A stretch of DNA of 64,000 nt from Xanthobacteraceae bacterium (GCA_049698215.1 JBAVXH010000428.1:613-64612); one strand, 5' to 3'; shown: positions 3,903 to 51,105, counted from the stretch's first letter. The notes: generated by a model not told the origin, from the letters alone. Numbers and translations are program-made.

Positions 3903-3972
3903 GGCCTTATAGGCACCGCACAACGGGAGAGTTCCAATCCGCGTGGCGATTTGACCATGCGGCGACGCACAA

Positions 3973-3995
3973 GGGCGGCCCGATCAGGGCCGCCC
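3973..3995 (-). terminator. GC-rich perfect hairpin (9-bp stem GGGCGGCCC / GGGCCGCCC, 5-nt loop) downstream of the lipase gene
   Basis: Read directly from the sequence. It sits in the 133-bp gap between the lipase stop (4056) and the PLD start (3902). No U-tract follows, so intrinsic-terminator function is uncertain. Confidence 0.3.
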
Positions 3996-4008
3996 CTCAA
4001 TAAGCGTG

Positions 4009-4026
4009 CGTTTTCACTCGAAAACG
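4009..4026 (-). terminator. Second small hairpin (CGTTTTC-ACTC-GAAAACG) in the same gap
   Basis: 7-bp inverted repeat seen directly, 30 nt downstream of the lipase stop on the minus strand. Confidence 0.25.
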
Positions 4027-4055
4027 GCTCGTTCGCCCGCGACGGTCCGCCCGCC

Positions 4056-5477
4056 CTAGGCCGTCGCGAGGTATCTGGCGTAGTTATAAGGCCAGTGTTG
4101 CCACCACGTGCGGGTTGTGTCGTCCGGGATCAGCACCGGATCTCTTGGGTCGCGCGCGGGGAATAGATCGCGCGGATAGTATTCGCCCTCATAGACGACC
4201 GGGTAGTGCGCCGCGAGGACATGGGGGACACCCATTCCGACATATTCCATCGAGACCGCCGGCCCTTCATGCGATAGCGCCGAGATCAGGCCTCCCAGCA
4301 CGCCGGCGATGACCGACAATGGAAACGGAAGCTCGGGTGGCTTGTGCTGACCCGATCCCTCGATCATTTCCACCAGCGGCGCAAGTGGCGACGAAAGATA
4401 GAGTCCGGTCGGCTCGGCGTCCGTACCAAGACCGCTGGCAATCGCGGGGTTGATCAAATCCGACATTGCCGTCTTTGTCGGCGGCAATTGCTGAGCGGTG
4501 TCCAGCGAGTTGTCCACGCGATAGGAGAATCCGTCGTTGCCCAGTGCCAACGCATAGTTCGAAGCCATGGGCGTGTTGCAGCTCTTCGGAGTGGCGAAGC
4601 TGTAACATTTCACATTGATCTTCTTCCCGGGCACACCCCCTGCCCTGACCCATGCGGAGAACAGCTGCGCAACGGCGGCACCAAGGCTGTGGCCGGTGAC
4701 ATAGAGGTCGATCTCATCGCCCGGCAAGGTCGACAGAATCGTGCGCAGGTTTAGCGGGATCTGCAGATCGACTGCCAGCGATTCGACGGCCGTCCGATAA
4801 CCGATGTGGATCATCGGAAGCTTTAGCGGAGGCTGAGCCGGCCGGTCGCCGGGCACGACGCCGCTGGGCAGTTCGGCCGCAGTACCAAATGGCAGAGTAT
4901 AATTCTCGTTGCTCACAAGATAGGGCGTGTTGATCGGGCCAGCCGGGACCATCAACGCCGCTTCGTCCTGCATGGCCGCGCCGGGATTGAGCGTTCCGGC
5001 AAATGCGACCGCATAGGCGTTTCTGGCCGCATTGTAGGAAACGATGGCGCCATTCACCGGCGCGCCATTGGCAAGCCTGGAGGTCACGAGTGACGGCGCC
5101 CACGGCCGCAACGAGTCGCTGCTCTGCACGCCAGGACCCCATCCCGCGGGCCAGATGCGATTGGCGGGATAAGGATATGTGCGGCCATCATCGTTGGTCA
5201 GCGGATTGTCCGGGTCCGCCGAGGGAGTCAATCCGATCGGGAATGGAGGAAAGACAACCGGGCCCAGATAGTTCGCCACCACGCACATGCCCAGTAATTC
5301 TTTCGCCTCGTCGGCGGAGAAGCCGAGGATCGAAGGCCGCGGACCAACCGGACTTTCTGAGTCGCGCGTTGCCACGCTGGCCACCTGAGTGCCGCCTGTT
5401 TCGGAAACACTTGCTACGGGAACGCCGGGTTCAGAGGGGCTCTTGCTGCTCTTCGGTGCTTTCATCTTTGCCTCCAT
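4056..5477 (-). CDS. Class 3 (fungal-type) lipase family protein with a low-complexity Ser/Pro-rich N-terminus
   Basis: Nucleophile elbow YVTGHSLGAAVAQL (GHSLG). The N-terminal ~60 aa are KSSKSPSEPGVPVASVSETGG... with no obvious signal peptide. Last gene of the long minus-strand operon. Confidence 0.7.
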   Translation of the reverse strand: MEAKMKAPKSSKSPSEPGVPVASVSETGGTQVASVATRDSESPVGPRPSILGFSADEAKELLGMCVVANYLGPVVFPPFPIGLTPSADPDNPLTNDDGRTYPYPANRIWPAGWGPGVQSSDSLRPWAPSLVTSRLANGAPVNGAIVSYNAARNAYAVAFAGTLNPGAAMQDEAALMVPAGPINTPYLVSNENYTLPFGTAAELPSGVVPGDRPAQPPLKLPMIHIGYRTAVESLAVDLQIPLNLRTILSTLPGDEIDLYVTGHSLGAAVAQLFSAWVRAGGVPGKKINVKCYSFATPKSCNTPMASNYALALGNDGFSYRVDNSLDTAQQLPPTKTAMSDLINPAIASGLGTDAEPTGLYLSSPLAPLVEMIEGSGQHKPPELPFPLSVIAGVLGGLISALSHEGPAVSMEYVGMGVPHVLAAHYPVVYEGEYYPRDLFPARDPRDPVLIPDDTTRTWWQHWPYNYARYLATA

Positions 5478-5526
5478 TGATCGGATTTCTGCGGGTGAAG
5501 GGCGCTAAGCGGTCGAATGTGAGAAA

Positions 5527-6330
5527 TCATGGCGACACATGCATCTCAATGATCTCGCGGGTCAGGCTGTCGTGCGCGTTCGTTGACAAAATGCGATTTG
5601 GGCTCTCGTCAAAGACCTCGACAACACGCGGCACCGACATCGCCTCCGCCAAGGCCAAGCCGAAGCCCTGATTCGCCACGAACAGTTTTGCTGCCGCGAT
5701 GACTTGGGCGAGATCGACGAAATCGGTCGCCTTGTAGAACTCGACGGGAAACCGCGATTCGCAGAACGCAAAATGCTCCAGTTCAAGCCCGACAAAGACC
5801 GTCTTTCGGGCGAACGGCGCCAACATGCGCCAATCGAGTTGTCCCGGGTACCGGTCGGTTTTGCACACGACAATATCGCCGATGTGCTTTGGGCTGATGC
5901 CCGAGAGCCAGGGTTCAAGGTTCGCTTTTCCTGGCAATGAGACGCAATCCCAATGGCACTGAGGCAGATCGACCTCAATCTTGGGAATGATGTTCTCCCT
6001 CATCTGCTCCACGGCGTTGCCGAAAAGCAGGCCCGCGAAGCGGTTGCCTTGGGCGCGCAAGAAATTGAAGACATGAATGCCGCCCGCCTTGTCGCGGAAC
6101 CGGTCCAGGTCGCAGGTTACCAGCCTGCCGTCGTAGAGGGCTGCGTCGTGGATGTAGCTCTGGGTGCGCAGCAGCTGCGTCATCATCTCGGCAGACGCTT
6201 CGCCAAGCGGCGGCTTCTGGAAATATTCGGTGCGATGATCGACGAAGTAGCTACCACCTCCGAGCGCCCGGACGGCAGGAAGGCTGTAGATGATATCGCC
6301 CAATTTGCCGCTGTGCCGGAACGAGCGCAT
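5527..6330 (-). CDS. Hypothetical protein, possibly glycosyltransferase family 9 (heptosyltransferase)-like fold
   Basis: The N-terminus MRSFRHSGKLGDIIYSLPAVRAL resembles the GT9 N-terminal G-D-x-I-x-x-x-P-x-x-R-x-L signature. The C-terminal LFVANQGFGLALAEAMSVPRVV resembles the GT9 donor-binding end. Start at ATG 6328-6330, directly after the upstream stop (6333-6335). Weak, memory-based call. Confidence 0.35.
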   Translation of the reverse strand: MRSFRHSGKLGDIIYSLPAVRALGGGSYFVDHRTEYFQKPPLGEASAEMMTQLLRTQSYIHDAALYDGRLVTCDLDRFRDKAGGIHVFNFLRAQGNRFAGLLFGNAVEQMRENIIPKIEVDLPQCHWDCVSLPGKANLEPWLSGISPKHIGDIVVCKTDRYPGQLDWRMLAPFARKTVFVGLELEHFAFCESRFPVEFYKATDFVDLAQVIAAAKLFVANQGFGLALAEAMSVPRVVEVFDESPNRILSTNAHDSLTREIIEMHVSP

Positions 6331-6332
6331 GG

Positions 6333-7967
6333 TCAGGCCGCCCGTCGCGACAGGGTGCGCAGGCTCTGCGCCAGCAACCGGGGCAGGAACCACTGGATGC
6401 TCCAGCGGACGGCAAGCAAATCAACGAAGTTCAAAGGTATGCAGAAGTCGCGGACGCGCTGGCTCTTCTCGCCAAAACCATTCTTGAGGGCGAATTCGAC
6501 GATAACGCTTTCGATGGTCAGGCCAGGCGCCAGCTCCTCGATCACATCGCCGAGCGTCAACAGCATTTTGCGGTAGATCAGGAAAGAGCTGCTGAATTTC
6601 ACGCCCGCACGCAACAGCCGCTGCAACAAATCCTCAAATGCGCCGGAGCCGGGGATCGATCCGGGTGACAGAGCGACAAAAAATTCCTCGACGACGCGCG
6701 CGATCAACGTTCGGTTTTCGGGGCTCGGAGGCACGCTCAAGACTTCCAGGATCTGCCGTATCCCCCCTTCGTCGCGCAGCGGAATTGCTAACGACAGGAG
6801 AATGAGGAGTCGGCGCTCATCTTTGCTCAGGGCTGCGGTGAGCGCCCAGTCGAGCACCACGATCTCGCCGTCGGGCGTGATCCGGAGATTTCCGGCATGG
6901 GGATCGGCGTGAAGGACGGACAGCTCGTCACACGAGAACAGCGGGTGCGCGGCCAAATTCTCCGCCAGCGCTCGCGCGATGGCGCGCCGCCGTTCGGGAT
7001 CGCCGGGGAACGCCGCAGTGACCTTGACGCTGCGTTCTTCCGTCATCGCGGTGATGGTCGGGGTCGAAAGCGAATAGATCGGCTGTGGAATGCGAAGAGG
7101 CTCGACGCCGCGATATCGCTCCAGCGCCGCCGCCATTGACTGCCGTTCCAGCTCGAAATTGGTTTCCGAGAGGAAAAGATCCTTCACGTCCTCGAGCACG
7201 CCGCGCAAGTTGAGCCGTCCCAAGGTGTAGCGGTGCTGGTTCTCATCGAAATACCGGGCGAGATCTGAAAGCACCTCCAGGTCCTCATGGAAGTATTCGG
7301 GAATGAACGGCTTGAGCACCTTGAAGACACCAACCGCCGGCTCGCCGACCGGCGGGTTGCGGCGGGTAAAACGCAACAGCGCACTGACACTGCCCTCGGC
7401 ATAGAGATTCGGCTCGATCTCGACCTGTTGCTCGATGAGCGCATCGTGTAGCTGGCTCTCGACTTCGCTGCGGATTTCCGGCGCGCTCACCTCGTGAATT
7501 CCGTCTTCCAGCTCCGCCAGCCGGCTACGCAATTCGGGCGCAAGATCCTTGTTGCGGGCGATCGTCTGTCCGATTTTTTGGAGACTCGGAATACGCCGGA
7601 CAAAGACCAGGACACGCTCTTCGGGCCTGGTGTCCGGCGGCAATCTCAATTGCTCGATCAGTTTGGGGATCAACCTCTCGGCCGAAAGCCGCGCTCCAAT
7701 GAAGGCAAAGCCGTCCCGTACGACCGGGCGCCAATTCTCGTAGGTATCCGGGACCAGTTCTTCGACCGGCAGCAGGGCGATGATCAGGTCTTGCACGATG
7801 TCCCGATGAGCCTGCCAGTTCACCTCCGCCAGAGCGCGCGTGGCCTCGTCCTCGGCCACAAGGTCGCCGGCAATCAGGCGCAACAGCGCCGGAGCCGATC
7901 CCTCCGGCAGGATTTCGGCGAATGCGGTCAATGCGGCTTGTTGGGTGCTCGTCAGGACAGCCTCCAC
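6333..7967 (-). CDS. ABC1/UbiB-family atypical kinase (soluble paralogue)
   Basis: LHADPHAGNLRITPDGEIVVLDWA (catalytic-loop-like HADPHxGN plus D-W/F), FKVLKP Lys region. Overlaps the upstream paralogue by 16 nt. Confidence 0.7.
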   Translation of the reverse strand: MEAVLTSTQQAALTAFAEILPEGSAPALLRLIAGDLVAEDEATRALAEVNWQAHRDIVQDLIIALLPVEELVPDTYENWRPVVRDGFAFIGARLSAERLIPKLIEQLRLPPDTRPEERVLVFVRRIPSLQKIGQTIARNKDLAPELRSRLAELEDGIHEVSAPEIRSEVESQLHDALIEQQVEIEPNLYAEGSVSALLRFTRRNPPVGEPAVGVFKVLKPFIPEYFHEDLEVLSDLARYFDENQHRYTLGRLNLRGVLEDVKDLFLSETNFELERQSMAAALERYRGVEPLRIPQPIYSLSTPTITAMTEERSVKVTAAFPGDPERRRAIARALAENLAAHPLFSCDELSVLHADPHAGNLRITPDGEIVVLDWALTAALSKDERRLLILLSLAIPLRDEGGIRQILEVLSVPPSPENRTLIARVVEEFFVALSPGSIPGSGAFEDLLQRLLRAGVKFSSSFLIYRKMLLTLGDVIEELAPGLTIESVIVEFALKNGFGEKSQRVRDFCIPLNFVDLLAVRWSIQWFLPRLLAQSLRTLSRRAA

Positions 7968-9766: not shown

Positions 9767-9787
9767 GGAACTCCCAATCGTCCGCTG

Positions 9788-11107
9788 TCAGTGGCCGGCT
9801 CGCGTTGTCCCTTTCAGCATCCGCGTCCGCAGCACCCCGGACAGGAATTGTTCAAAGGCTAAACAGGAATCCTGCTGTGCAGTTCGCCGCGCGATCTTCT
9901 GAGCCGCGACGCGATATTTGTCTTCGCTGAGGAGCCGCAGCGCCAACCGCCGCAGCGAATCGTCCGTGACCTCCGACTCGCGCATGAGCTCGCAGGCTCC
10001 CGCCTGCTCCACAGCCATGCTGTACAGCATCTGATCCAGATTCGAGATGAGCCCGAGGTAAGGGACGCCTGCGGATACGGCTTGCTGGCCCGACATCGCG
10101 CCTCCGTTGCAGATGACGAATCTGGAACGCCGGGCCGCTTCCATCCCGGGAATGAATTCAGCGAGGAAGACATTGCTCGGCAGTTGCGAGGGATTGATCC
10201 GGGCTGCGGTCGCCGCAATCACCGTCACCGGCAGCTCGCCCAAAACGCGGAACACCGTTTGCAGGAGCGCGGGTTCGCCGGTGCTGCCCAGCGAGACGTA
10301 CACGATCGGCTTGTGGGCGGGCAGGCGATCCCACCACGCAGGCGGCGGCACTTGGGCAGACCAGAGTAACGGGCCGATGAAGGCGTGTTCGGGCGGCAAA
10401 GGCTCGTGCAGCCGGTATAGCCCCGAATCGTTGGGATAAACCGCATAATCGCCGCAGGTGAAATAGGCCCGGATATCCGGTGCGATTTCCGGCAGCCCGT
10501 GTTTCCGCAGCACGCTGTTTATCGGTTCGACTTGGATCGCGAAGGCAATCGGAAGGACGACCGGCCGGACTATATGAAAGATGAAGTCCGACAAGGGGGT
10601 GCCTATCAGGCGCGAGATCGGGGAATCGGCCAGTTCGAACTTTGTGTCGACACACGGGCTCCAATGGGCATCGACGATCGACACGAAAGGAACGCCCGTC
10701 AGCCGACTGCTGACGATCAATGAGAACCGCGAATCGCCGACAACGATGTCGGGCTTGAACTCGCGAATAGTCTCGAGGTCGATCTGCACATACTTTTCCA
10801 GGATCTCGCGTGGAAAGAGCGGCTCGTTGTTATGTATACGCCGGAGAAAGGTCGAACTCGGCTCCGACTTGATATCGATGCGCGGGACGTTCTCGTCCGG
10901 CTGAAGCAGATGATTGTAGCGCGGATCGCGTGCAAAGCAGACGCTGTAGCCACGGCTGGCGAGATAGGAAGCGAGCATGGCCGGTCGCGCCACGTGCGAG
11001 AGGGCCGCGGTTTCGCCGATGAACAAAACGCGCGGTTTTGCGGAATCGACCGGGCTCCGGCCCGGCCTGGCCGGCGCCCATTGCTGCGCGTGGTGATACT
11101 CGCTCAT
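9788..11107 (-). CDS. GT1-family (MGT/UDP-glycosyltransferase-like) glycosyltransferase
   Basis: N-terminal VLFIGETAALSHVARPAMLASYL. The C-terminal donor-site region is VICNGGAMSGQQAVSAGVPYLGLISNLDQ (the hGG..s..eA...GvP...p...DQ pattern of GT1 enzymes). Start set at ATG 11105-11107 (MSEYHH), which overlaps the patatin TGA (ATGA). Confidence 0.7.
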   Translation of the reverse strand: MSEYHHAQQWAPARPGRSPVDSAKPRVLFIGETAALSHVARPAMLASYLASRGYSVCFARDPRYNHLLQPDENVPRIDIKSEPSSTFLRRIHNNEPLFPREILEKYVQIDLETIREFKPDIVVGDSRFSLIVSSRLTGVPFVSIVDAHWSPCVDTKFELADSPISRLIGTPLSDFIFHIVRPVVLPIAFAIQVEPINSVLRKHGLPEIAPDIRAYFTCGDYAVYPNDSGLYRLHEPLPPEHAFIGPLLWSAQVPPPAWWDRLPAHKPIVYVSLGSTGEPALLQTVFRVLGELPVTVIAATAARINPSQLPSNVFLAEFIPGMEAARRSRFVICNGGAMSGQQAVSAGVPYLGLISNLDQMLYSMAVEQAGACELMRESEVTDDSLRRLALRLLSEDKYRVAAQKIARRTAQQDSCLAFEQFLSGVLRTRMLKGTTRAGH

Positions 11108-12354
11108 CAGGTCCCGCGCAGTTGAGCGCCGCGGCGCGCTTGCATTTGCAGCGGATCGACGGTTGCCGGCGCCGATATTGCGTCTGCCGCGGTCGCGCCC
11201 GGCCAGAACCAGCCGCTGTCGGCCAGCCACTTGGCACTCCTTTGAACTGCCTCGTGCGTGCGCGGATCGTCCGGGACGAGAAAGTCCTTGATCGGAACGT
11301 TGAGGCGGTTGAAATTCTCTCGCAGCAGAACGCGGCATTGGAAGGCCGCCGACTCGTTGCCGCCCTGCAGAAATGCATCCACAAGGACCAGCGGATTTGA
11401 AAGATCAAATAGCCACTTTTGATAACCCCAGGCGGCGGATCCATTTTCGAATTCAGGATCGAGATATTGCGCCGTTCCCACCAGATTCCGGCCCGTGCCG
11501 ACCGACAGCACCAGAATCTCGTCCAACACACTCCCGGGCGCAATGGCGCCCCCTCTCATATGGATGATCGTGCCGACAATGGCCGCCAGAGTGATCATTG
11601 ACGGGTTGTTCGCGACGAGGCCCCCATCGACGAAGCCGGATACGCCGGGCGTGCCATAAAAGGACTGGTAAATAGGCAGCTCCAGCGGCGCAGCGCTGGT
11701 GCGCATCGCCACATCCACAACGCTCTCATCCAGGTCGGGATTGGAAGCCGGACTTATGCCTCCGTGCGGCAAGCTCACCGTGTACGGCAAATTCGTATAG
11801 AGCTTGGGCGCCCAGCTGCGCAGGTCGCTGGATTGACTCGCGACCTGCTTATCCAACTGGAAGGTGACGACCACGACCGGGTACCGCGTCAGGTCTCCCA
11901 GCCGCATGTCACCAAAGCGCTGAAGCAGCAATGTTTTCATGGCGTCATTGAGGAACAGGGAACGAACCCCGAGTGCCGCCATGGACAGGCCGGCGGCAAT
12001 CCTGATCACGGTACCGAGGTCTGCCGAATTCCCTGTGTGCGCCGGCATTTGCGCCAGCGCCTCAGACGCGGCAGCCTGGCTTTGCTGTAACGAACGTTGC
12101 GCCTCCGCGGAGCTCAGTCCTTCGAGGATCGAGGCGTTGACCTGGCTCCAAAAGGCCTTGATCTCTCCCAACGCAACCGTTGGATCGCCCGATGCAGCAA
12201 GATACAGGGCGTTAATGCCTCCCGCCGAGGTGCCGGCAAAAACATTGGCCTTATCAAGAAAGTGCTTGTGTGCAACATTTTCCAGTTGGATCAGCAACTC
12301 TGCGGTATTCAGGCCGTTGCCGCCATCCATCGAAAGGATTCGATATTTGCCCAT
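11107..12354 (-). CDS. Patatin-like phospholipase
   Basis: ILSMDGGNG (oxyanion DGGG-like), GTSAGG (GxSxG nucleophile), VDGGLVANNP (catalytic Asp, DGG). A purine-rich SD-like stretch lies upstream; the gap to the NRPS stop is 18 bp. Confidence 0.8.
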   Translation of the reverse strand: MGKYRILSMDGGNGLNTAELLIQLENVAHKHFLDKANVFAGTSAGGINALYLAASGDPTVALGEIKAFWSQVNASILEGLSSAEAQRSLQQSQAAASEALAQMPAHTGNSADLGTVIRIAAGLSMAALGVRSLFLNDAMKTLLLQRFGDMRLGDLTRYPVVVVTFQLDKQVASQSSDLRSWAPKLYTNLPYTVSLPHGGISPASNPDLDESVVDVAMRTSAAPLELPIYQSFYGTPGVSGFVDGGLVANNPSMITLAAIVGTIIHMRGGAIAPGSVLDEILVLSVGTGRNLVGTAQYLDPEFENGSAAWGYQKWLFDLSNPLVLVDAFLQGGNESAAFQCRVLLRENFNRLNVPIKDFLVPDDPRTHEAVQRSAKWLADSGWFWPGATAADAISAPATVDPLQMQARRGAQLRGT

Positions 12355-12372
12355 GACGCTGTCTCTTCCTCT

Positions 12373-15300: not shown

Positions 15301-16488
15301 TCGTGCGCCATCTCCCTTGAGCCCGAGAGATTGCACCACACGCTGAAACGGCACTTCCTGGTTCGCCTGAGCCCCCATGGCGACATCGCGAACGCGCGCC
15401 AGGACCGTGCGGAACGTCGGATCGCCGGAAAGATCGGTGCGCAGAATGATCGTATTGATGAAGACGCCAACGATGCCGTTGAGACTGCTCTGGGTGCGGT
15501 TCGTCGTCGGCAACCCCACCAGGATGTCGTCCTGGCCGGAGTAGCGCATCAGCACGATATTGAAGACCGCGAGAAGCGCCATGAAGAGTGTGGCGTTCGA
15601 CTCGCGCGCGAGGCGCTTGAGCCCGTCGATCGTATCCGCCGGACAACTGAATACTTCCCGTCCACCCGCGTGTGCGCGGTCATCGGAGATTTGGCGGTCG
15701 ACAGGCAGCTGCAGCGGACCATCTATCCCTTGGAGCCGTTCCTTCCAATACTCGAGCTGCCGCTCAAGAAGCGGCGCTGCGTCGGTGAAGTGTGTCTGCT
15801 CCCACAGCGCAAAATCAGCGTACTGGGCATCGACCGCACCAAGCTTGGGCTCGCGGCCTTCGAGAAGCGCCGCATAAGCTCCAAACAACTCCCTGAAGAA
15901 AATTCCGCCGGACCACCCATCGAAAATGATGTGGTGCATCGTGAAGAGCAGGCGGTATTGATCTTCGTCGAGCCTCCAGAGTGCAGCGCGGAAAAGCGGA
16001 CCTTTGTCCAACTGGAACGGCTCGCGGACCAGGACTTGCGCCTCGGCCTGATATTTCGCCACGCGCCGGCCCGCTGCCAGATCGCGCAGATCGCGTATGT
16101 CGAGTCGCGGTAGCGAACATGCGGCGACGCGCTGAAGCAAGCGGCCCTCTGCTGAGTGGAATGTGGTCGAGAAAATCTCGTGCCGCGCCATCACCAAATC
16201 AAAACTTTGCGCCAAGATCTCCGCGCGAACGCGGCCTTCCAGCTTCAGCGCGAACGTTTCGTTATAGAGCGGCTGATCGGGGCTCCATTGATGATTGAAC
16301 CACATCCGCTCCTGTGCAGCGGAAAGCGGAAACTCCCGGCGATTGTCGCGCGAGTGTGACGGGATCTTGTCGTTGGGAGAAATGGCGTCTGGCGATGCGT
16401 CCTGCAGCAGCCGGCGCGTCAGCAGCGCACGCTGCTGCGGTGAGAGCGCCGCAAGGCGCTTGGAGAGTGTGGCTGCTTCAGCCGGCAT
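12373..16488 (-). CDS. Non-ribosomal peptide synthetase, single terminal module C-A-T-TE (A-domain code reads Leu)
   Basis: C: HHIIFDGWS. A: YVIYTSGSTGQPKG, NNYGPTEATV, YRTGDL, GRADRQVQVHGCRVEL, LPRTTSGKTD. T: FFQIGGDSLSA. TE: GWSLGAP. N-terminal LSKRLAALSPQQRALLTRRLL docking-like helix. Confidence 0.95.
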   Translation of the reverse strand: MPAEAATLSKRLAALSPQQRALLTRRLLQDASPDAISPNDKIPSHSRDNRREFPLSAAQERMWFNHQWSPDQPLYNETFALKLEGRVRAEILAQSFDLVMARHEIFSTTFHSAEGRLLQRVAACSLPRLDIRDLRDLAAGRRVAKYQAEAQVLVREPFQLDKGPLFRAALWRLDEDQYRLLFTMHHIIFDGWSGGIFFRELFGAYAALLEGREPKLGAVDAQYADFALWEQTHFTDAAPLLERQLEYWKERLQGIDGPLQLPVDRQISDDRAHAGGREVFSCPADTIDGLKRLARESNATLFMALLAVFNIVLMRYSGQDDILVGLPTTNRTQSSLNGIVGVFINTIILRTDLSGDPTFRTVLARVRDVAMGAQANQEVPFQRVVQSLGLKGDGARSLARVLFDFQKKVDLFVETPGFTVRGAEVTNGMAKFDLVLAMEDSGDEIKGILDYDAEKYEAATAQQIARHFNTLMRSVAAAPDSPITLLPMLGDDELALVEASGLDTSDRQSVSACVATERFAQEAPQALALSDGVTQFTFGELSALATQVANFLSRRNVGRRQTVALFMPPGPALVAAQFGIMKAGAAFVPIDPTWPADRVAFLIRDSRAALTIVGDDQVNDIQASGETIRLSQVLNEAPKADSLSAPSTTEPDDPAYVIYTSGSTGQPKGVALSRSNLANLAVWHQRAFGVSPNDRASQMASVSFDASVWEIWANISAGASIHFPPRGLIADAARTRDWLVQRDITISFAPTLLAEELIELDWPASTKLRWLLTGGDRLRKHPKRDLAFRLVNNYGPTEATVVTTSGLVESAAQGGAPSIGRPIDNVWLRIVDRNLQPVPPGVWGELIVGGRAVGLGYWGSAESAAGGFATLPDGRRVYRTGDLCRIRRDGEIEFLGRADRQVQVHGCRVELSEIERTLLELPDIREAAVVPRESPDGRVSLAAYLVPAGGAAPKPEALRTYLAAKLPSYMLPSSFATIGQLPRTTSGKTDWKRLAEDAGAGGSRAAFCKPRTVTESRLVELWQQILRLSAVGVQDDFFQIGGDSLSATRLALRVRELFDIDLPLSRMVARPTIEALASFLDDAQQRTEKLPDEIVPLRSGRGMQPPLFLAPPASGSPACYAVWASAFEGDRAVYGLLSPGFSGGKVAASIPDQARAYLTAIYAVQSSGPYHIAGWSLGAPLAFEIACQLREAGKQVAYLGLVDGALPENGKLPGNISLLRGLWWAVTYPFSERMPLNYATVRQLANFLGIALPPSLLNVRQRGWRASAQFLGELVAGAGRSLRVFLANVRGLRSYQPRYFDGAVTLFRTQPPADVSEDALLNSMAKWCARVDMRDAPGTHMTLILDPQQATQFAPMFESTLEPKLKLVVVD
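12376..13191 (-). other. NRPS thioesterase domain (approximate bounds)
   Basis: GWSLG with Ser at aa 1176; a His lies near the C-terminus (APGTHMTL). Confidence 0.6.
13249..13461 (-). other. NRPS thiolation (PCP) domain (approximate bounds)
   Basis: GGDSL with Ser at aa 1044. Confidence 0.6.
13504..14931 (-). other. NRPS adenylation domain (approximate bounds)
   Basis: aa ~520-995; core motifs A3, A5, A7, A8 and A10 read directly. Confidence 0.6.
15019..16341 (-). other. NRPS condensation domain (approximate bounds)
   Basis: aa ~50-490; HHxxxDG at aa 185-191. Confidence 0.6.
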
Positions 16489-18310: not shown

Positions 18311-18314
18311 CGTC

Positions 18315-20141
18315 CTATGCTCCGCCGGCCATCGCCATGGCGTATTCCCGCTCGGGTTCGAGCCAGCATCGCCGCAGTTGTGTGCGGATTTCGGCACGCT
18401 CCGCGGCACGCGCCATATGTTCGGCGAGCGTGAAGCCGGAATCCGTCATTGGCTCTTTCGGCAGCACACCGAAAGCCTGGAGATGCATTTCGGCGGCGGT
18501 CGCCTCCAGCAGGCTGATGTTGTCCATCAGCTTGCGACGCAGCGCCGCGTCGTCGAAATTCCCTTCCATCTCGGAGTGAACCAGCGGGTAGACGAAATTG
18601 ACGCGCGTGAGATCGACGTGAGCGCGAGTATGAACTTGATGCTTGGTCGCTTCGTCCCAGCTGCGCAGGAAATCCTGCGTCTTGCGTTGCAGAACCTGGA
18701 TGTGGATCAGCTCCTGCCGGATCGACCGCAGAAATTCCTGATCGTCGATCTTGTTATGAAAGAAAATAAGACCGAGCGTCGCCCAATACCAGACGAGATC
18801 CCAGATGACCTTGGCGATCCAGACCTGAGCGTTGCCCAGAATGCCGTACTGATCCTGAAACACGCGGATCGCCGTGTCGTACAGGAAATCCAGATAGAAC
18901 CAGTTATAGAACTCGACCTTCTCCGTCAGGTCTCCGCCGGAGAGGTCATGGCGCACCATGTCGGTCACGAGGGTGTTGCCCATCGCGACGAAGTCGGATC
19001 CCGGCGAATAGAGCGGGTCGGTAAACAACCCCGCATCGCCGATCAACGCCCAACGGTCCTGCGAGTAGATCTGGCTCGTCGTGTGCGCGTATTTCTTCAG
19101 CGCCAGGAAATCCAGGATCCCGTCGCGGCGCTCGCGGACGAGGCGCCCGACCAGAGGCTCGTTCTTGTCGAGCCAGTCGATAAAACGGTCGCGGCTGTTG
19201 AACTCGTTGAGTGGATGGTAGCGCGGGTCCGCCACGATCCCAACGCTCGTCGAGCCCGACGCCAGGCGGATCAGCCACACCCAGTATCCGCGCCCCACAA
19301 GATGGTTGGTGGAATACTGCCGGAAACTGCTCAGCATGCGGCCACGGAATTCGGGATCGTCGCTCCAATCCTCCAGGTTGATGGGAACGGTGATCCTCAG
19401 CCATGCGGCATTCACATCGTGTTCCGACGGCCTGGCGAGGCCGAGCTTTCGGCGCAGGAAGCCCGGACGCCCCATGCCGTCGACGACCCATCGCGCCTTG
19501 ACGCGATGTTCCTGGCCACCGCGCCTCAGCTGAATTTCGTGCGGCGTGTCCCCTTGTTGAATATCGATGCCGATGACGCGGCAATCGTCGACGACGCCGG
19601 CGCCTTCCTTCGAGGCCTGCACGGCGAGCATGTTCTCGAAGCGGCCGCGATCGATCTGGTAGGTCGGAATCGGCAAGACATGGTTGGCAAAGGGTCCGAT
19701 CTCTACGCGCTTGGCCAGGTCGCTGTTATCGCCGTAGGGGAAGAAGAAGCGCAGCCCCATCTTGCGCAACTGACGCTGGTCCATGTGGGGGCGGAATCCG
19801 AGCACACTGTCGAAATAGTGTGCGCCGATCTCGACCGAGGATTCGCCGACCTTATGCGCGGCCTCCGGAACCGGAAACCGATTGGCCTCGACGACGAGGA
19901 TACGCGCCTGCGGAACGGCGCGGCGCAGCTGAATCGCCAGCGTCAGCCCCGCCAAGCCTCCACCCAGGATGGCGACATCATACTCATCCTGCAGCGTATG
20001 CTCGTCCGGCCGGGTTTCGCTCTCGTTGATTGTCGACGAGACATTGCGCTGCTCCGCGCTCTTGCTCACCAGCCGCGCGAGCAGCTCCCGCTTTCGGTCG
20101 TCGAGAGCATCAATGCGCTTGTTGATGTCGGTCATTCCCAC
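18315..20141 (-). CDS. Flavin-dependent halogenase paralogue (WxWxIP motif degenerate: WVWLIR)
   Basis: AILGGGLAGLTL, GYWVWLIRL (nt 19266-19283), FTDPLYSPGSDF, HKVGESSVEIG. GTG start 20139-20141 with AGGGA upstream (alternative ATG at 20133-20135). The 5' end overlaps the PKS 3' end by up to 32 nt. Confidence 0.65.
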   Translation of the reverse strand: MGMTDINKRIDALDDRKRELLARLVSKSAEQRNVSSTINESETRPDEHTLQDEYDVAILGGGLAGLTLAIQLRRAVPQARILVVEANRFPVPEAAHKVGESSVEIGAHYFDSVLGFRPHMDQRQLRKMGLRFFFPYGDNSDLAKRVEIGPFANHVLPIPTYQIDRGRFENMLAVQASKEGAGVVDDCRVIGIDIQQGDTPHEIQLRRGGQEHRVKARWVVDGMGRPGFLRRKLGLARPSEHDVNAAWLRITVPINLEDWSDDPEFRGRMLSSFRQYSTNHLVGRGYWVWLIRLASGSTSVGIVADPRYHPLNEFNSRDRFIDWLDKNEPLVGRLVRERRDGILDFLALKKYAHTTSQIYSQDRWALIGDAGLFTDPLYSPGSDFVAMGNTLVTDMVRHDLSGGDLTEKVEFYNWFYLDFLYDTAIRVFQDQYGILGNAQVWIAKVIWDLVWYWATLGLIFFHNKIDDQEFLRSIRQELIHIQVLQRKTQDFLRSWDEATKHQVHTRAHVDLTRVNFVYPLVHSEMEGNFDDAALRRKLMDNISLLEATAAEMHLQAFGVLPKEPMTDSGFTLAEHMARAAERAEIRTQLRRCWLEPEREYAMAMAGGA

Positions 20142-25494: not shown

Positions 25495-25519
25495 TCTGAC
25501 GCTGTACCCTTAGCCTTCC

Positions 25520-27340
25520 TCACCGATTCACTCGGTTTAGTTCCGCGAGGACCAATGCCTCGGTTGCCTGATCCTTCGTCGCCAAGGTGCTGCTCGCCCC
25601 CTGGTCGTTTGGACCACTCGCAACGCAGCGCGCCATCGCGGTCGTGGTCGAATAGGTCCACGGAGCGGTTGGCTCCAAATCAATGCCGAGCCAAGCGTTC
25701 AGACTCTGGACGAGCAGCACAGCGCGCATCGAATCCAGACCGAGATCGGCCAACGCAATATCCGGGGAGTTCGTCGGCGGAGGCGTCTCCAGATTGTCGG
25801 CCAGCCAATCGAGAATCCAACGCTTCGCCGCCTCCTCGCTTACGTGCTTGCGCGTCCGGTTGAGCGTGCGATCCGCTGCTTGCTGACGCAGGACGCGCTT
25901 CAGGATCTTGCCCGTCGGACTCTTCGGTATCTCCTGCACGAAGCGAACGATGGCCGGCACCTTCACTTCCGCCATCCGCTGCCGGCAGTAGCGGCGAATC
26001 TCGTGTTCGGACGCCACGGCAGTTGGCCGCAGCACGATATCGGCGCGGACCTGCTCGCCAAGAAGCGGTTCGCGGATCCCGTAGACGGCAGCCTCGGCCA
26101 CCGCCGGATGAGAGTGAAGAACGTTCTCCACTTCGGCCGGATAGACGTTGACCCCGCCCAAGATGACCATATCCGAGAGGCGATCTTCGACATAGAAATA
26201 ACTATCGGCATCGCGCCTGCCGATATCGCCGGTGTGAAACCAGCCGCCGCGCATGACCAGTTCAGTTTCCTCGGGCCGGCCCCAATAGCCGAGCATCACA
26301 TTGTGCCCGCGCACGACGATCTCGCCCTTCTCCCCCTCGGCGCATTCCGCGCCGCTCGCGGGATCGAGGATTTTCATTTCCACGCCGTCGATGGGCACGC
26401 CGATGGAGCCCGGCCGGTGATCGGACAGGTGATTGTAGGAAGCGAAGGGAGAAGTTTCCGAAAGACCGTAGCCCTGGAAGATCGGCGCTCCGAACATCTC
26501 CTGCCAGGCGCTCTCGATTTCGAGCGGGAGCGGTGCCGCGGCGGAAAACCAGTACCTTACCCCCGCGACTTCCTTCAGCGGACGCCGGGCCAGCAGCACG
26601 ATGAAGTTGGCGGGCACGCCGAAAAACATCGTAACGCCGTGATCGGCGATGGAGCGCAGCACCTGTTCGAGATCGAACCGGCGGTGCAGCACGACCGCCG
26701 CGCCCGATTGCAGCATGGCGTTGAAAATCGCGTTCTGGCCGAAGCAGTGATAGAGCGGCAAAAACAGAATGCCGCGGTCGTCGGGACGAATGCCGAGATA
26801 ACGCTGCTTGGCTTCGATATTCCGGACGACGTTGGAGTGAGAGAGCACCGCGCCCTTTGGGCGGCCGGTGGTGCCGGATGTGTAAACGATCGCGGCGGGA
26901 TCATGCGGCTGCATAGCCCGCGCGCCCGAGAGCGGCTCTGCCGCCATCAAGGTCGCGGCGAACGCCTCATCGCAGACGTAGACATGCTCCACCGACGCTG
27001 CCGAGAGGTTCTCGCGCAACTCCGGCATGGTCACGACCGCGCGCGCCTCACAATTTTTCAGAACATAGTGGAGCTCGTCGTACTTCCATCCGGTGCTGAT
27101 GGAAACCGCAATCGCGCCAAGCTTGAGAATCCCCAAATAGGCGATCGCAAACTCAGGCACATTCGGCAGGTAGAGCGCGATGCGATCGCCCGCAGACAAG
27201 CCGTCCCGGGCGAAGAGGCCTGCCGCTTGCGACGATCGCTCGTTCAGCTCCTTGTAGGTCCAGGTTTGCCTCTCGAACACCAACGCGATGCGCTCCGGAT
27301 GAGCACCCGCGCCGCGTTCGATGTGTTCGGCAATGTTCAT
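25520..27340 (-). CDS. Acyl/aryl-acid adenylating enzyme (4CL/FadD-like ANL family) fused to a C-terminal carrier protein (loading didomain)
   Basis: IVYTSGTTGRPKGAVLSH, GYGLSETSP, WFHTGDIGRRD, GGVNVYPAEVE, PKSPTGKILK, then ACP-like ADLGLDSMRAVLLV. The ATG overlaps the lyase TGA (ATGA at 27337-27340). Confidence 0.85.
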   Translation of the reverse strand: MNIAEHIERGAGAHPERIALVFERQTWTYKELNERSSQAAGLFARDGLSAGDRIALYLPNVPEFAIAYLGILKLGAIAVSISTGWKYDELHYVLKNCEARAVVTMPELRENLSAASVEHVYVCDEAFAATLMAAEPLSGARAMQPHDPAAIVYTSGTTGRPKGAVLSHSNVVRNIEAKQRYLGIRPDDRGILFLPLYHCFGQNAIFNAMLQSGAAVVLHRRFDLEQVLRSIADHGVTMFFGVPANFIVLLARRPLKEVAGVRYWFSAAAPLPLEIESAWQEMFGAPIFQGYGLSETSPFASYNHLSDHRPGSIGVPIDGVEMKILDPASGAECAEGEKGEIVVRGHNVMLGYWGRPEETELVMRGGWFHTGDIGRRDADSYFYVEDRLSDMVILGGVNVYPAEVENVLHSHPAVAEAAVYGIREPLLGEQVRADIVLRPTAVASEHEIRRYCRQRMAEVKVPAIVRFVQEIPKSPTGKILKRVLRQQAADRTLNRTRKHVSEEAAKRWILDWLADNLETPPPTNSPDIALADLGLDSMRAVLLVQSLNAWLGIDLEPTAPWTYSTTTAMARCVASGPNDQGASSTLATKDQATEALVLAELNRVNR

Positions 27341-29037
27341 GCGTAGAACTCCCGCAGATCCGACAGCACGGGGCCGAACGACTGCGCGATTGGACCATCG
27401 CTCTCAAGATCCTCGACGATGGCGGAGATGTACTCGTCCAGCGACTGATCCCCGTCGTCCCAAACGTAGGGGCGCGCTCGCCCCGGTTTCACGCCGGTGA
27501 CCTGCTTAACCGCTTCATATGTCGTTCGTGTTGCATCGGAGAGCGTTTCGCGGGCGTCATAATGGTGGAATTGTGCAAACGTCCGCAGGTCGGCTGCCTG
27601 GACGCCGAAGATCAATCCCGCCGCCAGATAGAGGCGGAAGGTGTCGAGTGACTCGCGCGCGAGAACCGCCGAGCCCAGGCCCTGGCTGTTGACGTTCTGA
27701 TTGAACTGCTCGGCATGGGTCGGGAACCGGTCCGCGATCGAGTTTCCGAAGAATGACAGTCGCGGCGCCAAAGAATTCAGAGTGATCTGTAGCGCCTTAA
27801 GACCAGTGTTGACCGGCTGCTGCACGTTGCCGACCAGCGAGGGCGGGAGCCCATTGCTGAATTCCGGCGCGACCACGAGCGCAATCTGCGCGTCCAAATG
27901 CTTGGCCAGCATGCCGAGATGATAGCGCAGCTGGTCCATGCCGACGCCGATGTATTGCCCCAGAAAGTTGCCGCCGTGATAGGCAATGCCTGCTTCCGCA
28001 TCGATCAGCGGATTATCCGTCGCCGAGTTCCCCTCGACTTCGATCTGGGCCCCGATGGCGATCAGCCCGTCGACGATGGGCCCAAGAAATTGCGGCAAGC
28101 AGCGCAGCGAGTATCGGTCCTGAATAAGTTCACCGGGCGCACGGCCGCGATCGGTCCCGCTCCCGCGGACTAGTTTCGAGCCGTGCAGCAGTTGCAGCAT
28201 CTGTTGAGCGGCCCAGCGCTGGCCTGGATGTGGCTTGAGCCGATGCACGAACGGCGCAAAGGACTCGGTCGAGGCACGCAAGGCCTGTGCCAGGAGGGCG
28301 TGAAGGCACAACGTCCCGGCCAGGAATTTGTGTGTGTCAGAGATACAGTTGGCGGCGACGCCCGTCATCACCGAGGTACCGTTCATCATCGCCAGCGCTT
28401 CTTTCGCCTCCAGAGGAAGCGGCGAAAGGCCGAGGCGCTCGAGCGCGACCAGCGCGTCGATTTCCTCGCCATCGTCGTCGACGCGATAGCCCGGCGCGAG
28501 ACCACAGATCGCACCCGTGACGTAGGCGAGCGGCACTAGATCGCCGCTCGCGCCGATCGAGCCATGCGCCCGCACGCGCGGCGTAACGTTCTCGTTCAAA
28601 AAGAGGATCAGCCGTTCGATCAATTCCAGGCGAACGCCCGAGGCGCCCCAGAGCAGCGCATTGGCGCGCAACAGCATCGCGGCCCGGACGTCCTCGTTGC
28701 TGAGAAAATTCCCCGCGCCGGTCCGATGGGACAGCGGCAAATTGTTTTGCAGCGCGGCCGCCGAAGTGGATGGCACGGCGAGGTTGGCCATGCCGCCGAA
28801 CAGCGTCGTGATCCCGTAGATCGGCTGACCGCGGCGCACCGCGTCCTCAACGAAGGCGCGCGATGCAGCGATTCTGTTCAGAACGATGGGATCGTCGGTG
28901 AGCCTGACGCTGGACCGCTGGCGGGCGACGCGCAGCATGTCATCGAGCGACAAGCCCTGACCGCGCAGGACAACAGCCTCACGTTCGCCGCGAGACGGCC
29001 AGCGAGCAGCTTCTGCGTCCGAGGTGGCCACAGCCAT
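27337..29037 (-). CDS. MIO-dependent aromatic amino acid ammonia-lyase (or aminomutase), TAL/PAL/TAM clade
   Basis: MIO-forming triad in GSIGASGDLVPLAYV (Ala-Ser-Gly encoded at 28543-28551). Also YGITTLFGG, NGTS, PHPGQ, YSLRC, TDNPL, GGNFLGQ. Confidence 0.85.
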   Translation of the reverse strand: MAVATSDAEAARWPSRGEREAVVLRGQGLSLDDMLRVARQRSSVRLTDDPIVLNRIAASRAFVEDAVRRGQPIYGITTLFGGMANLAVPSTSAAALQNNLPLSHRTGAGNFLSNEDVRAAMLLRANALLWGASGVRLELIERLILFLNENVTPRVRAHGSIGASGDLVPLAYVTGAICGLAPGYRVDDDGEEIDALVALERLGLSPLPLEAKEALAMMNGTSVMTGVAANCISDTHKFLAGTLCLHALLAQALRASTESFAPFVHRLKPHPGQRWAAQQMLQLLHGSKLVRGSGTDRGRAPGELIQDRYSLRCLPQFLGPIVDGLIAIGAQIEVEGNSATDNPLIDAEAGIAYHGGNFLGQYIGVGMDQLRYHLGMLAKHLDAQIALVVAPEFSNGLPPSLVGNVQQPVNTGLKALQITLNSLAPRLSFFGNSIADRFPTHAEQFNQNVNSQGLGSAVLARESLDTFRLYLAAGLIFGVQAADLRTFAQFHHYDARETLSDATRTTYEAVKQVTGVKPGRARPYVWDDGDQSLDEYISAIVEDLESDGPIAQSFGPVLSDLREFYA

Positions 29038-29175
29038 TGGATTGCACGTGATGAGTAGAAAATGTCCGATTGCATCCTAGCATCAGTTGAATCCGGATTC
29101 CAAGCCTGCAGCTACGCAATGCTGATCAGACGAGCTGCGGCACGCCATCGCTTCGACATCGGAACTCGATTTTGC

Positions 29176-29694
29176 TCAAGCCGGTTGCCGGCCTGTCAGA
29201 AGGCGCTGAATGAATCGAACCGGCGGAGGGATAAGGAACTCGCGAATGATCTGCGCCAGATCGAAAAAAGCACGCACTTCTAGAATGCGACCATTGTGCA
29301 TGTAGATCAGATCGCACCCCTCAACGTCGATCACCACGCCAAGCGGCGGAATGCCATGAAAATAGCCATCTTGGGTGCCGGTCATCCGGAACCGAAGCGC
29401 CACTCGGTTCCCTTCCGATATTCGATCTAGCTCAACGAAGTGCTTGTTAGAGAAGGCCATCCTGGTCTCCTCCAGAAATGTCCGAAATCCGCTCTGATCG
29501 ACCCCGTGCAAGGTCGACGGTCCTCGGAATACGAAATCCGGCGCCAGGATTTCGTCCGCCCTGCTGAAGTCGCCTCGATTGAGTAGCTCATCGAAATAAC
29601 GATCCACCAATACGCGGTGTGGAATGCTCTGCTGCGTCGGCGGCGCCGGTTGGACCGCAGTTCCTGCGAGGAAATCGTTCGGGGGATTTTCCAT
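29176..29694 (-). CDS. SnoaL-like / ester cyclase (NTF2-fold) protein
   Basis: YFDELLNRGDFSRADEILAPDFVFRG...GVDQSGFRTFLEE...VALRFRMTGTQDGYFHGIPPLG...VEGCDLIYMHNGRILEVRAFFD matches the ester-cyclase/SnoaL pattern (recalled). Confidence 0.6.
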   Translation of the reverse strand: MENPPNDFLAGTAVQPAPPTQQSIPHRVLVDRYFDELLNRGDFSRADEILAPDFVFRGPSTLHGVDQSGFRTFLEETRMAFSNKHFVELDRISEGNRVALRFRMTGTQDGYFHGIPPLGVVIDVEGCDLIYMHNGRILEVRAFFDLAQIIREFLIPPPVRFIQRLLTGRQPA

Positions 29695-32275: not shown

Positions 32276-32281
32276 CGGTTC

Positions 32282-33708: not shown

Positions 33709-34440
33709 ATGATGCAATCGCCGCACATTTTGGTATGGACCGTCGCCTTGCAGCAGGTTCCCGAACCAGCGTGGAGCCGACTCGGGACATTGCTCGACCA
33801 TGGGGAGCGTGTCCGCGCCGGGCGCTTTGCGTTTGAGCGACACCGGCGGGAATACAGCGCGGCTCACGCATTGAAGCGGCTGATGCTCACGGCTGTCGGC
33901 GGCATGGCGCCGCATTCATGGTGCTTTGAAACGGATGCATGGGGAAAGCCACGGGTCAGTCCCGAGGTGGGACCCCATTTTAACCTCTCCCACTGCGCGG
34001 GACTTGTGGCATGTGCCGTCAGCAATGAGTTGGAACTCGGTATCGACGTCGAGCCCCTTGATCGAGAGGCGCCCCTCGAAATTGCCAAAGTCCACTTCAC
34101 TCCGACGGAGCAAGCTTGGATCGCCGCACTGCCTTCACCGGAGCGCGGCGTGGCTTTCTGGAAGGTCTGGACGCTGAAGGAAGCCTTCATCAAAGCGACG
34201 GGCCGCGGGCTCAGGCAGCCACTGCACGACTTCAGCGTCGCCTTCGACCCGCTGCGTGTGATTTTTCACGACCAAACGCTTGGAGACAGCCGTGCATGGC
34301 ACTTCGAGCAGCGCCAGGTCGGCAGCGCACATATGCTGGCATTGGCCTGGCGCGACCCTGGTCGGCAGGCTTCGGTCGCGCTCCAGGAGATGCAGTTAGG
34401 TCCCTTGTTGGATCGCTTTCGCGCGTTCTCATCGCGCTAG
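33709..34440 (+). CDS. Sfp-type 4'-phosphopantetheinyl transferase
   Basis: FNLSHCAGLVACAVS, GIDVEPL, WTLKEAFIKATG. Confidence 0.85.
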   Translation: MMQSPHILVWTVALQQVPEPAWSRLGTLLDHGERVRAGRFAFERHRREYSAAHALKRLMLTAVGGMAPHSWCFETDAWGKPRVSPEVGPHFNLSHCAGLVACAVSNELELGIDVEPLDREAPLEIAKVHFTPTEQAWIAALPSPERGVAFWKVWTLKEAFIKATGRGLRQPLHDFSVAFDPLRVIFHDQTLGDSRAWHFEQRQVGSAHMLALAWRDPGRQASVALQEMQLGPLLDRFRAFSSR

Positions 34441-50678: not shown

Positions 50679-50770
50679 AACGCTCGCCAAGCGTTGCGAA
50701 GCTGAACCTGCGCCGCTACTTGGAGCGTGCTACCTTCTCGTCGCAACAGAGACGACGAAGGGGAACCGGC

Positions 50771-51103: not shown

Positions 51104-51105
51104 AA

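Follow-up and report, generated by a model that had tools for sequence, protein, structure and literature searches.

What does a bacterium make with 13 consecutive genes that combine an aromatic amino acid ammonia-lyase, an acid-loading ligase, a type I polyketide synthase (PKS), two flavin-dependent halogenases and a non-ribosomal peptide synthetase (NRPS), and how many of these genes belong to one pathway? The question is raised by a 64,000-nucleotide stretch of DNA labelled Xanthobacteraceae bacterium (GCA_049698215.1 JBAVXH010000428.1:613-64612), hereafter the window, in which a six-frame open reading frame (ORF) list and the junction sequences place 13 tightly packed genes on the minus strand, from 29694 down to 4056 (Table 1). 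An earlier note on this DNA had predicted an orphan operon for a (di)halogenated aryl-pentadienoyl-leucine. That reading stands for the most part, but it went too far in defining the product and drew the set of member genes too narrowly. We assign a probability of roughly 0.6 to a cluster that makes a halogenated aryl-enoyl-leucine, which is then further decorated, and the product is probably a halogenated, sugar-decorated aryl-dienoyl-leucine.

The earlier note had proposed checking how widely the gene order is conserved. We found the same order, namely SnoaL, lyase, ligase(-acyl carrier protein (ACP)), PKS, Hal1, Hal2, NRPS, patatin, glycosyltransferase (GT), ABC1, ABC1, a 267-amino-acid (aa) protein and Lipase_3, on at least seven independent contigs, mostly Acidobacteriaceae metagenome-assembled genomes (MAGs). 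Several uncultured bacteria from soil share the cluster. NRPS identity to the window spans 51–87%, with 87% in locus L027, ~54% in L028/L029, and 51–54% in L034, L035, L036 and one JGI contig, and the order is kept across two phylum-level labels. A 50.7-kb Logan contig also contains the ligase-ACP gene and the genes around it, SnoaL through NRPS, and in a species-representative genome set the nearest relatives are Acidobacteriaceae MAGs (63% identity for the ligase). The arrangement on at least seven contigs is therefore not due to chance and defines a conserved cluster family. Upstream in the window, the genes for a class-III aminotransferase, a PglD-like acetyltransferase, a PAP2 protein and a phosphopantetheinyl transferase (PPTase) lack synteny in the relatives, so the cassette is bounded by SnoaL and Lipase_3; the aminotransferase, PglD-like and PAP2 genes were rejected as members for this reason. 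Literature searches, made without a MIBiG comparison, turned up no characterised cluster that is built in this way. We regard the locus as a member of a real, conserved and apparently orphan cluster family.

The minus-strand layout and the overlaps described in the earlier note were reproduced from ORF coordinates and junction sequences. Of its two ATGA overlaps, the one shared by the lyase stop and the ligase start (27337-27340) stood, and the one at the patatin/GT1 junction (11105-11109) reads TGATG with a 1-nt overlap. The Hal2 and NRPS genes overlap by 11 nt (16478-16488), the ABC1a and ABC1b genes by 16 nt (7952-7967), and the PKS and Hal1 genes by 26 nt counted from the ATG at 20135 or by 32 nt from an upstream GTG at 20141. 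Remaining gaps, previously put at no more than 50 bp, measure 2–49 nt, except that 138 nt separate SnoaL from the lyase. Promoter-like and terminator-like matches within the cluster were at or below shuffled expectation; this absence of an internal excess is compatible with one long transcript, without proving it, and the genes from lyase to lipase probably form one operon. Two hairpins past the last gene, also noted before, are present in a region (3972-4030) that folds as RNA at -53.6 kcal/mol (z = -2.1). Having no T-tract, they were rejected as a canonical intrinsic terminator, and a consensus scan called none after the lipase gene. Neither an Rfam scan nor a tRNA scan of the window gave a match.

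Pfam searches and directly read motifs likewise recovered every domain that had been named, the collinear assembly logic, the Leu code and the nearby PPTase. The locus contains the KS-AT-ACP set, the C-A-T set with a releasing domain and the PPTase by which a type I PKS-NRPS system is recognized.

In the first step of the pathway, the 4-methylideneimidazol-5-one (MIO)-dependent lyase would convert an aromatic amino acid into the corresponding acrylic acid, with L-Tyr giving 4-coumarate as the favoured case. The MIO-forming Ala-Ser-Gly triad is present (GSIGASGD), and the scaffold is of the phenylalanine ammonia-lyase (PAL) type, at about 58–60% identity. The best matches in the PDB are the cyanobacterial PALs 2NYN and 2NYF (AvPAL, NpPAL; E ~1e-198). 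At the selectivity pair, PALs carry Phe-Leu, tyrosine ammonia-lyases (TALs) His-Leu and histidine ammonia-lyases (HALs) Ser-His. The window lyase has Ser-His at the positions aligned to AvPAL Phe107-Leu108 (NLPLSHRTGAG versus NLVWFLKTGAG), and at the position of HAL Glu414, which belongs to the NQEDH motif, it has the Gln of PAL and TAL (HAEQFNQNVNS). Of the 120 best lyase homologues, 38 clusters with at least 68% identity form a clean clade that shares NLP(L/F)(S/A)H, and Ser-His is invariant or near-invariant within it. Beyond this clade identity falls to 63% or less, the next group is mostly from Nostocales and has Tyr-His, and true Phe-Leu lyases are rare. By these alignments, the Ser-His lyases are a clade of their own.

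Scytonema hofmannii PCC 7110 has one of the Tyr-His lyases in what looks like a furanolide (cyb-like) cluster (KQ976354.1 1239452-1259161; L037), together with genes for a DAHP synthase, a CoA ligase, a thiamine pyrophosphate (TPP) enzyme, a ketoacyl-ACP synthase III (KASIII)-like enzyme, a Coq4-like protein and a prephenate dehydrogenase. With the adjacent CybB/CybC-like pair of this locus, the lyase of the window shares 58% identity and its ligase 51%. CybB is reported to be a tyrosine ammonia-lyase that converts Tyr to 4-coumarate, and CybC the 4-coumarate ligase that activates the product (PMC13288894). This homology is the best available evidence on the starter and points to a (hydroxy)cinnamate-type acid; because of it, and because the halogenases need an electron-rich ring, Tyr is the favoured substrate, and conversion of Tyr to coumarate is the most likely reaction. 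Given the Ser-His pair, we infer Tyr rather than read it from the sequence. The aryl-acrylate starter of the earlier note is thus supported by the CybB/CybC-like homology, whereas its choice of 'Tyr or Phe' runs up against the Ser-His pair.

Starters other than Tyr or Phe have to be weighed at this point: the lyase might take His (giving urocanate), DOPA, Trp or a pre-halogenated Tyr, and the halogenases would then act on that ring. The near-invariance of the HAL-type pair across the 38-cluster clade speaks for such a substrate, as do the larger pocket that Ser in place of Phe or Tyr would create and the presence of the pyrrole halogenases PltA, Bmp2 and Mpy16 among the closest solved relatives of Hal1 and Hal2. 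We nevertheless think it unlikely, in view of the PAL-type scaffold at ~58–60% identity, the Gln at the Glu414-equivalent position, the 51% identity of the ligase to a CybC-like coumarate-type ligase and the Tyr-His sister clade, which sits in cyb-like clusters beside prephenate dehydrogenase, CybB itself being reported as a TAL (PMC13288894). We also considered whether the MIO enzyme might be an aminomutase that supplies a beta-amino acid. This is unlikely, because activation is by an enzyme of the acid:CoA-ligase type instead of an NRPS A domain, and the lyase-type scaffold points the same way.

The 4-coumarate:CoA ligase (4CL)-like enzyme, whose best PDB matches are feruloyl-CoA synthetase and 4CL-type ligases, would adenylate the resulting acid and load it onto its own fused ACP. 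The PKS would then add malonate, and its B-type KR and DH would leave a trans double bond, so that a single round would yield a 5-aryl-2,4-pentadienoyl-S-ACP. Motifs for these reactions are in place: the KS retains its catalytic Cys-His-His (TACSG, HGTGT, KSNLGH), the AT has its active-site Ser (GQSLGE) and a malonate-type Phe (VAFH), and the DH (HKVLGSVIFP), KR (GGLGGLG, LDD of the B type, YAAGN) and ACP (LGMDS) are recognizable, with carrier serines present in the carriers of the cluster. TACSG and GQSLGE are kept in all five family orthologues checked; VAFH occurs in four of the five, the search pattern being unmatched in L006.

How often the module acts bears directly on the product. The motifs fit the dienoyl intermediate of the earlier note; its single round of malonate extension was assumed, and iterative, polyene-forming PKS-NRPSs share this layout. 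If the one PKS module worked iteratively, a longer, pigment-like halogenated aryl-polyene acyl-leucine would result. KS-AT-DH-KR-ACP followed by C-A-T-TE is the order of the iterative polycyclic tetramate macrolactam (PTM) synthases, aryl-polyene lipopeptides such as the alterochromides exist, and the lipid-handling accessory genes would suit a membrane pigment. Set against this, the PKS is most like ordinary modular cis-AT PKSs, no sequence feature identifies it as iterative, and a deltaproteobacterial locus with a homologous ligase-ACP (L005) has at least two successive KS-AT-DH-KR-ACP modules, which mildly favours collinear use in the family. Iteration is a minority possibility, and we retain a single extension to the pentadienoyl stage.

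The two halogenases, which are 42% identical to each other, would act on the intermediate while it is bound to the carrier and add chlorine or bromine, presumably at positions ortho to the phenol. Their only solved relatives are the carrier-dependent or small-molecule flavin halogenases CmlS, CndH, PltA, ChlB4, Bmp2 and Mpy16, together with an uncharacterised Cytophaga flavoprotein (E 1e-10 to 1e-18); Hal1 matches CmlS, PltA, ChlB4, CndH and Bmp2 at 1e-12 to 1e-16, and Hal2 matches CmlS at 6e-18 and CndH at 3e-16. Both proteins contain GGGLAG, FTDP(L/F)YS(P/L)G and a Lys aligned to the catalytic-Lys region of CmlS (LRKMGLRFF in Hal1), and these features are kept in all orthologues of either protein. 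Of the flavin halogenase motif set (GxGxxG, a Lys downstream of the GES motif, WxWxIP and FxDPxxSxG), Hal2 has all four, as does Hal1 save for Arg in place of Pro in WxWxIP. The Hal1 form, WVWLIR, is invariant in its orthologues (n = 7) and WVWFIP in those of Hal2 (six to seven orthologues each); Hal1 and Hal2 are therefore two maintained paralogues, as would be expected if halogenation took place in two distinct events. The clade to which they belong is uncharacterised and very large: nearly all of 8000 scored candidates have E of 1e-20 or below, and the hosts are Chloroflexota, Acidobacteriota and Deltaproteobacteria, with proteins of about 550–650 aa.

As an alternative, one or both enzymes might be flavin monooxygenases or otherwise not halogenate, so that the product would be hydroxylated. 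Matches to the Pfam and NCBIfam halogenase models are weak and far below cut-offs, Hal1 has the Pro-to-Arg change, and no characterised member was found among the homologues. We consider this improbable, since both Trp residues of WxWxI, the CmlS-aligned Lys and FxDPxYSxG are retained in Hal1 and Hal2, the PDB matches are nearly all halogenases, and WxWxIP occurs in 118 of the 120 best Hal2 homologues.

Recruitment of the halogenases could be explained by a helix that they have in common with the NRPS. About 30 residues at the N termini of Hal1, Hal2 and the NRPS follow the pattern [LI][SN]xR[IL]xALxxxxRxLL, which is absent from CmlS, and the C-terminal tail of the PKS, EELLAQVEKMSPEELEAHL, is conserved as (E/D)LLxQVExMSPxE(L/I)EAxL. 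We read the shared helix and the conserved tail as docking of all three proteins to the PKS C terminus, which suggests that Hal1 and Hal2 are recruited there through a putative docking helix and halogenate the ACP-bound intermediate. A passage in PMC9113145, citing Kosol 2019, reports halogenase docking domains of a beta-hairpin type. Many members of the halogenase clade begin with an LSxRIxALSPEKRxLL helix, which is also found on NRPS N termini and may be a docking element.

At the end of the core assembly line, the C domain would couple the acyl chain to Leu on the peptidyl carrier protein, and the TE would release the product. The A domain has the canonical Leu code DAWFLGNVVK (Stachelhaus positions counted ungapped from FDASVWE), identical in 20 of the 22 NRPS orthologues scanned, and the C (HHIIFDG) and TE (GWSLG) motifs are intact, next to the N-terminal docking-like helix.

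The genes beyond the NRPS extend this scheme. The earlier note had treated the patatin, the GT1, the two ABC1 proteins, the GT-related 267-aa protein and Lipase_3 as peripheral, a view that does not hold, as they are conserved as strongly as the core. The product is thus probably more elaborate than a free acyl-leucine, and the presence of GT1 and the GT-related protein indicates glycosylation. In a final step these two proteins would add one or more sugars, and a lipophilic product may be processed, acylated or trafficked by the UbiB-like pair, the class-3 lipase and the patatin-like enzyme; both proposals stem from strict co-conservation with the core, which argues for membership of the pathway in acyl transfer or hydrolysis and in lipophilic-product handling. 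Alternatively, the six genes downstream of the NRPS could serve an unrelated lipid or envelope function and be mere neighbours: apart from GT1 none belongs to a standard tailoring family, and UbiB, patatin and lipase proteins are generally those of lipid metabolism. We find this highly improbable, because order and tight or overlapping junctions are kept down to 52% NRPS identity and across two phylum-level labels, whereas the flanking genes on both sides are not conserved.

Individual accessory proteins fit known families to different degrees. The SnoaL-like gene lies upstream of the lyase in the Acidobacteriaceae loci L002-L004 (64–66% identity). The patatin has its catalytic motifs (DGGNG, GTSAG, DGG) and its gene follows the NRPS in all relatives; a metagenome scan with the patatin alignment returned only four short contigs, uninformative on synteny. 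A defence lipase of the cyclic oligonucleotide-based antiphage signalling system (CBASS) type was considered for it and rejected, because the place of the gene in the cluster is fixed and the score is 86 bits against a 200-bit cut-off. GT1 is conserved in relatives and matches the NCBIfam MGT subfamily below its cut-off. ABC1a and ABC1b are kept as a pair; ABC1a scores 272 bits against NCBIfam UbiB, below the cut-off, and has C-terminal membrane helices, with a transmembrane-like segment at residues 544-562. The lipase gene is also conserved.

The 267-aa protein is probably related to glycosyltransferases and is a candidate unannotated domain. It had no PDB match, and a relaxed Pfam search gave sub-threshold GT1 hints only; a metagenome scan returned no relatives, and an AlphaFold2 single-sequence model had a mean pLDDT of 31, unusable for a fold search. 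Its family has ~2000 representatives at 50% clustering, with longer members fused to GT2, GT9 or methyltransferase domains, and its N terminus is of the GDxxxxxP type. The Sfp-type PPTase, which likely activates the three carrier domains, adjoins the cassette in L036 and is not syntenic in the Acidobacteriaceae loci.

Several observations count against the pathway as a whole. The selectivity pair of the lyase is that of HAL and not His-Leu as in TAL or Phe-Leu as in PAL, and the enzyme falls below every NCBIfam equivalog cut-off (363 bits versus 519 for phe_am_lyase and 323 versus 539 for hutH, with scores far below cut-off for the FlxA and BagA TAL models). The AT active site reads GQSLG, with Gln for the usual His of GHSxG, and nothing in the sequence sets the number of PKS rounds. 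Hal1 has WxWxIR where WxWxIP is expected, and no flavin reductase was identified within the cluster.

How does the cluster compare with known systems? Its closest likeness at the front end is to the furanolide (cyanobacterin, cyb) pathway, in the adjacent pair of MIO lyase and acid-activating ligase represented by CybB and CybC. In the window, by contrast, the ligase has an ACP fused to it and supplies a PKS, the lyase has Ser-His where the cyb-like lyase has Tyr-His, and the CybE-type TPP enzyme and CybF-type KASIII-like furanolide synthase seen in L037 are both missing from the Pfam-scanned window genes. The cluster looks like a minimal PKS-NRPS to which a loading pair of the CybB/CybC type has been joined.

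The alterochromide pathway also combines an aromatic acrylate starter from a MIO lyase, a tyrosine ammonia-lyase, with a flavin halogenase, polyene-type extension and NRPS attachment to amino acids. Alterochromides involve type II fatty acid synthase-like elongation, a multi-module NRPS and a cyclic pentapeptide, whereas the window has one type I PKS module, one Leu module and a conserved glycosyl/lipid block. The iterative PKS-NRPSs of PTMs such as HSAF share the domain order; in the window two separate proteins contain the domains, two halogenase genes lie between the PKS and NRPS genes, the code is for Leu and not Orn, a dedicated aryl starter cassette is present, and no PTM cyclising oxidoreductases were seen in the cluster. 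Because the defining components are absent, the cluster does not belong to the furanolide, PTM or type II aryl-polyene families.

At the level of single enzymes, the carrier-protein-dependent (variant B) flavin halogenases CmlS, CndH, PltA and Bmp2 are the closest in the structure database and share GxGxxG, Lys, WxWxIP and FxDPxxSxG; the window proteins differ in their ~20–25% identity, their length of ~600 aa, their uncharacterised clade and their docking-like helix. Loaders of the FadD22 type from mycobacterial phenolic glycolipid synthesis are also fusions of an adenylating enzyme and a carrier that pass a hydroxy-aryl acid to a type I PKS, whereas the ligase of the window falls among enzymes of the 4CL, feruloyl-CoA and fatty-acyl-CoA synthetase types. 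Mycobacterial ligase matches in the genome scan reach 42% identity and occur without the rest of the cluster. The C-1027 pathway, which the earlier note named alongside alterochromide and FadD22, reportedly follows a similar logic.

Taken jointly, these features invite a broader but speculative reading, to which we give only a minority chance: the cluster could be the type I PKS/NRPS equivalent of the systems that make aryl-polyene, xanthomonadin and flexirubin pigments. Both halogenases, from their very large clade, and the NRPS would then share one docking site on the PKS carrier protein through the same N-terminal helix. The halogenated aryl-enoyl-leucine, instead of leaving as a free acid, would be glycosylated and passed to or with membrane lipids by the patatin, the lipase and the UbiB-like pair, and the Ser-His lyase would represent a new substrate class on the PAL scaffold.

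If the cluster is expressed as proposed, a small halogenated aryl-dienoyl amino-acid glycoconjugate would be expected. Hardly any natural products have been characterised from the lineages concerned, Acidobacteriaceae and the MAG labelled Xanthobacteraceae. General principles are unchanged, since hybrid clusters without a known product are common. The interest lies in particular enzymes: a lyase that combines the PAL scaffold with Ser-His at the selectivity positions; two halogenases of a large uncharacterised clade with apparent docking helices, which would be useful for engineering on-line halogenation; and a compact ligase-ACP loader for cinnamate-type acids. Co-conservation of the UbiB-like pair, the patatin and the lipase with a PKS-NRPS could hint at how lipophilic products are handled.

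Table 1. Genes of the conserved cassette from first to last, the nearby PPTase gene and the possible transcript end (window positions).
Feature	Coordinates	Strand	Basis or remark
SnoaL-like (NTF2-fold) protein, 172 aa, first cassette gene	29176..29694	(-)	Pfam SnoaL 1.6e-24
MIO-dependent aromatic amino acid ammonia-lyase, 566 aa	27337..29037	(-)	Pfam Lyase_aromatic 3.9e-137
Aryl-acid adenylating ligase-ACP fusion (loading didomain), 606 aa	25520..27340	(-)	Pfam AMP-binding, AMP-binding_C, PP-binding
Type I PKS KS-AT-DH-KR-ACP, 1794 aa	20110..25494	(-)	Pfam; docking-like N- and C-terminal tails
Flavin-dependent halogenase Hal1, 606 aa	18315..20135	(-)	WVWLIR variant; N-terminal docking-like helix
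Flavin-dependent halogenase Hal2, 610 aa	16478..18310	(-)	canonical WVWFIP
NRPS C-A-T-TE, Leu-specific, 1371 aa	12373..16488	(-)	Pfam and A-domain code
Patatin-like phospholipase/acyl hydrolase, 415 aa	11107..12354	(-)	Pfam Patatin 1.8e-15
GT1-family (MGT/EryCIII-like) glycosyltransferase, 439 aa	9788..11107	(-)	Pfam EryCIII-like_C
ABC1/UbiB-family atypical kinase-like protein (ABC1a), 604 aa	7952..9766	(-)	Pfam ABC1 2.4e-60
Second, divergent ABC1/UbiB-family protein (ABC1b), 544 aa	6333..7967	(-)	Pfam ABC1 4.5e-21
267-aa protein without Pfam family	5527..6330	(-)	conserved in cassette
Class-3 lipase-domain protein, 473 aa, last cassette gene	4056..5477	(-)	Pfam Lipase_3 5.3e-14; GHSLG
Two stem-loops	3972-4030 (approx.)	(-)	7-bp and 11-bp stems directly after last stop; possible transcript end
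Sfp-type PPTase	33709..34440	(+)	Pfam ACPS, AASDHPPT_N; about 4 kb upstream, outside conserved cassette

Relatives of the cassette vary in detail. In some, a GT2 domain is fused to GT1 or the ligase and ACP are separate genes; in others a TylF-type O-methyltransferase precedes the lipase or a UbiE-type methyltransferase follows it. In one Acidobacteriaceae MAG (L028/L029, 1-883), there is no fusion, and gene calls give a ligase of 535 aa and, separately, a protein of 75 aa, the size of an ACP. The same MAG has two near-identical copies of the cluster on two contigs, the second with many broken genes downstream.

The contig is labelled Xanthobacteraceae at NCBI, where MAG entries under that name on a 69.5-kb contig are identical to the NRPS, lyase and Hal2 sequences, yet the relatives of the cluster are nearly all Acidobacteriaceae MAGs. 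GC content is 0.60–0.62 in most 2-kb intervals of the cluster (0.64–0.66 in the PKS gene) and mostly 0.63–0.68 elsewhere in the window. The mismatches in label and GC would be accounted for by horizontal transfer or by mis-binning.

Downstream of the cassette and on the same strand lies a gene whose product joins a PLD domain to a membrane domain of the DedA/VTT type (1797-3902); it is shared with the close relative L027 at 90% identity. An endonuclease/exonuclease/phosphatase-family gene follows it, and the region 1117-3902 is conserved in L027 only. Upstream, a divergent trio (29857-32941) of a class-III aminotransferase, a 426-aa protein without a Pfam family and the PglD-like hexapeptide acetyltransferase may be an amino-sugar or amine modification unit. 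Genes for PAP2 (32956-33678 in the window), Sfp-type PPTase and type II thioesterase recur beside the cassette in relatives in differing positions and orientations, the PAP2/PPTase-type neighbours lying at 23385-23678 in L035 and 22967-24110 in L036. Farther away, at 49949-52215, a radical SAM protein with DUF3641 adjoins a carboxymuconolactone-decarboxylase-family protein, and a dip in AT skew at 46–48 kb coincides with permease genes of a branched-chain amino acid ABC transporter.

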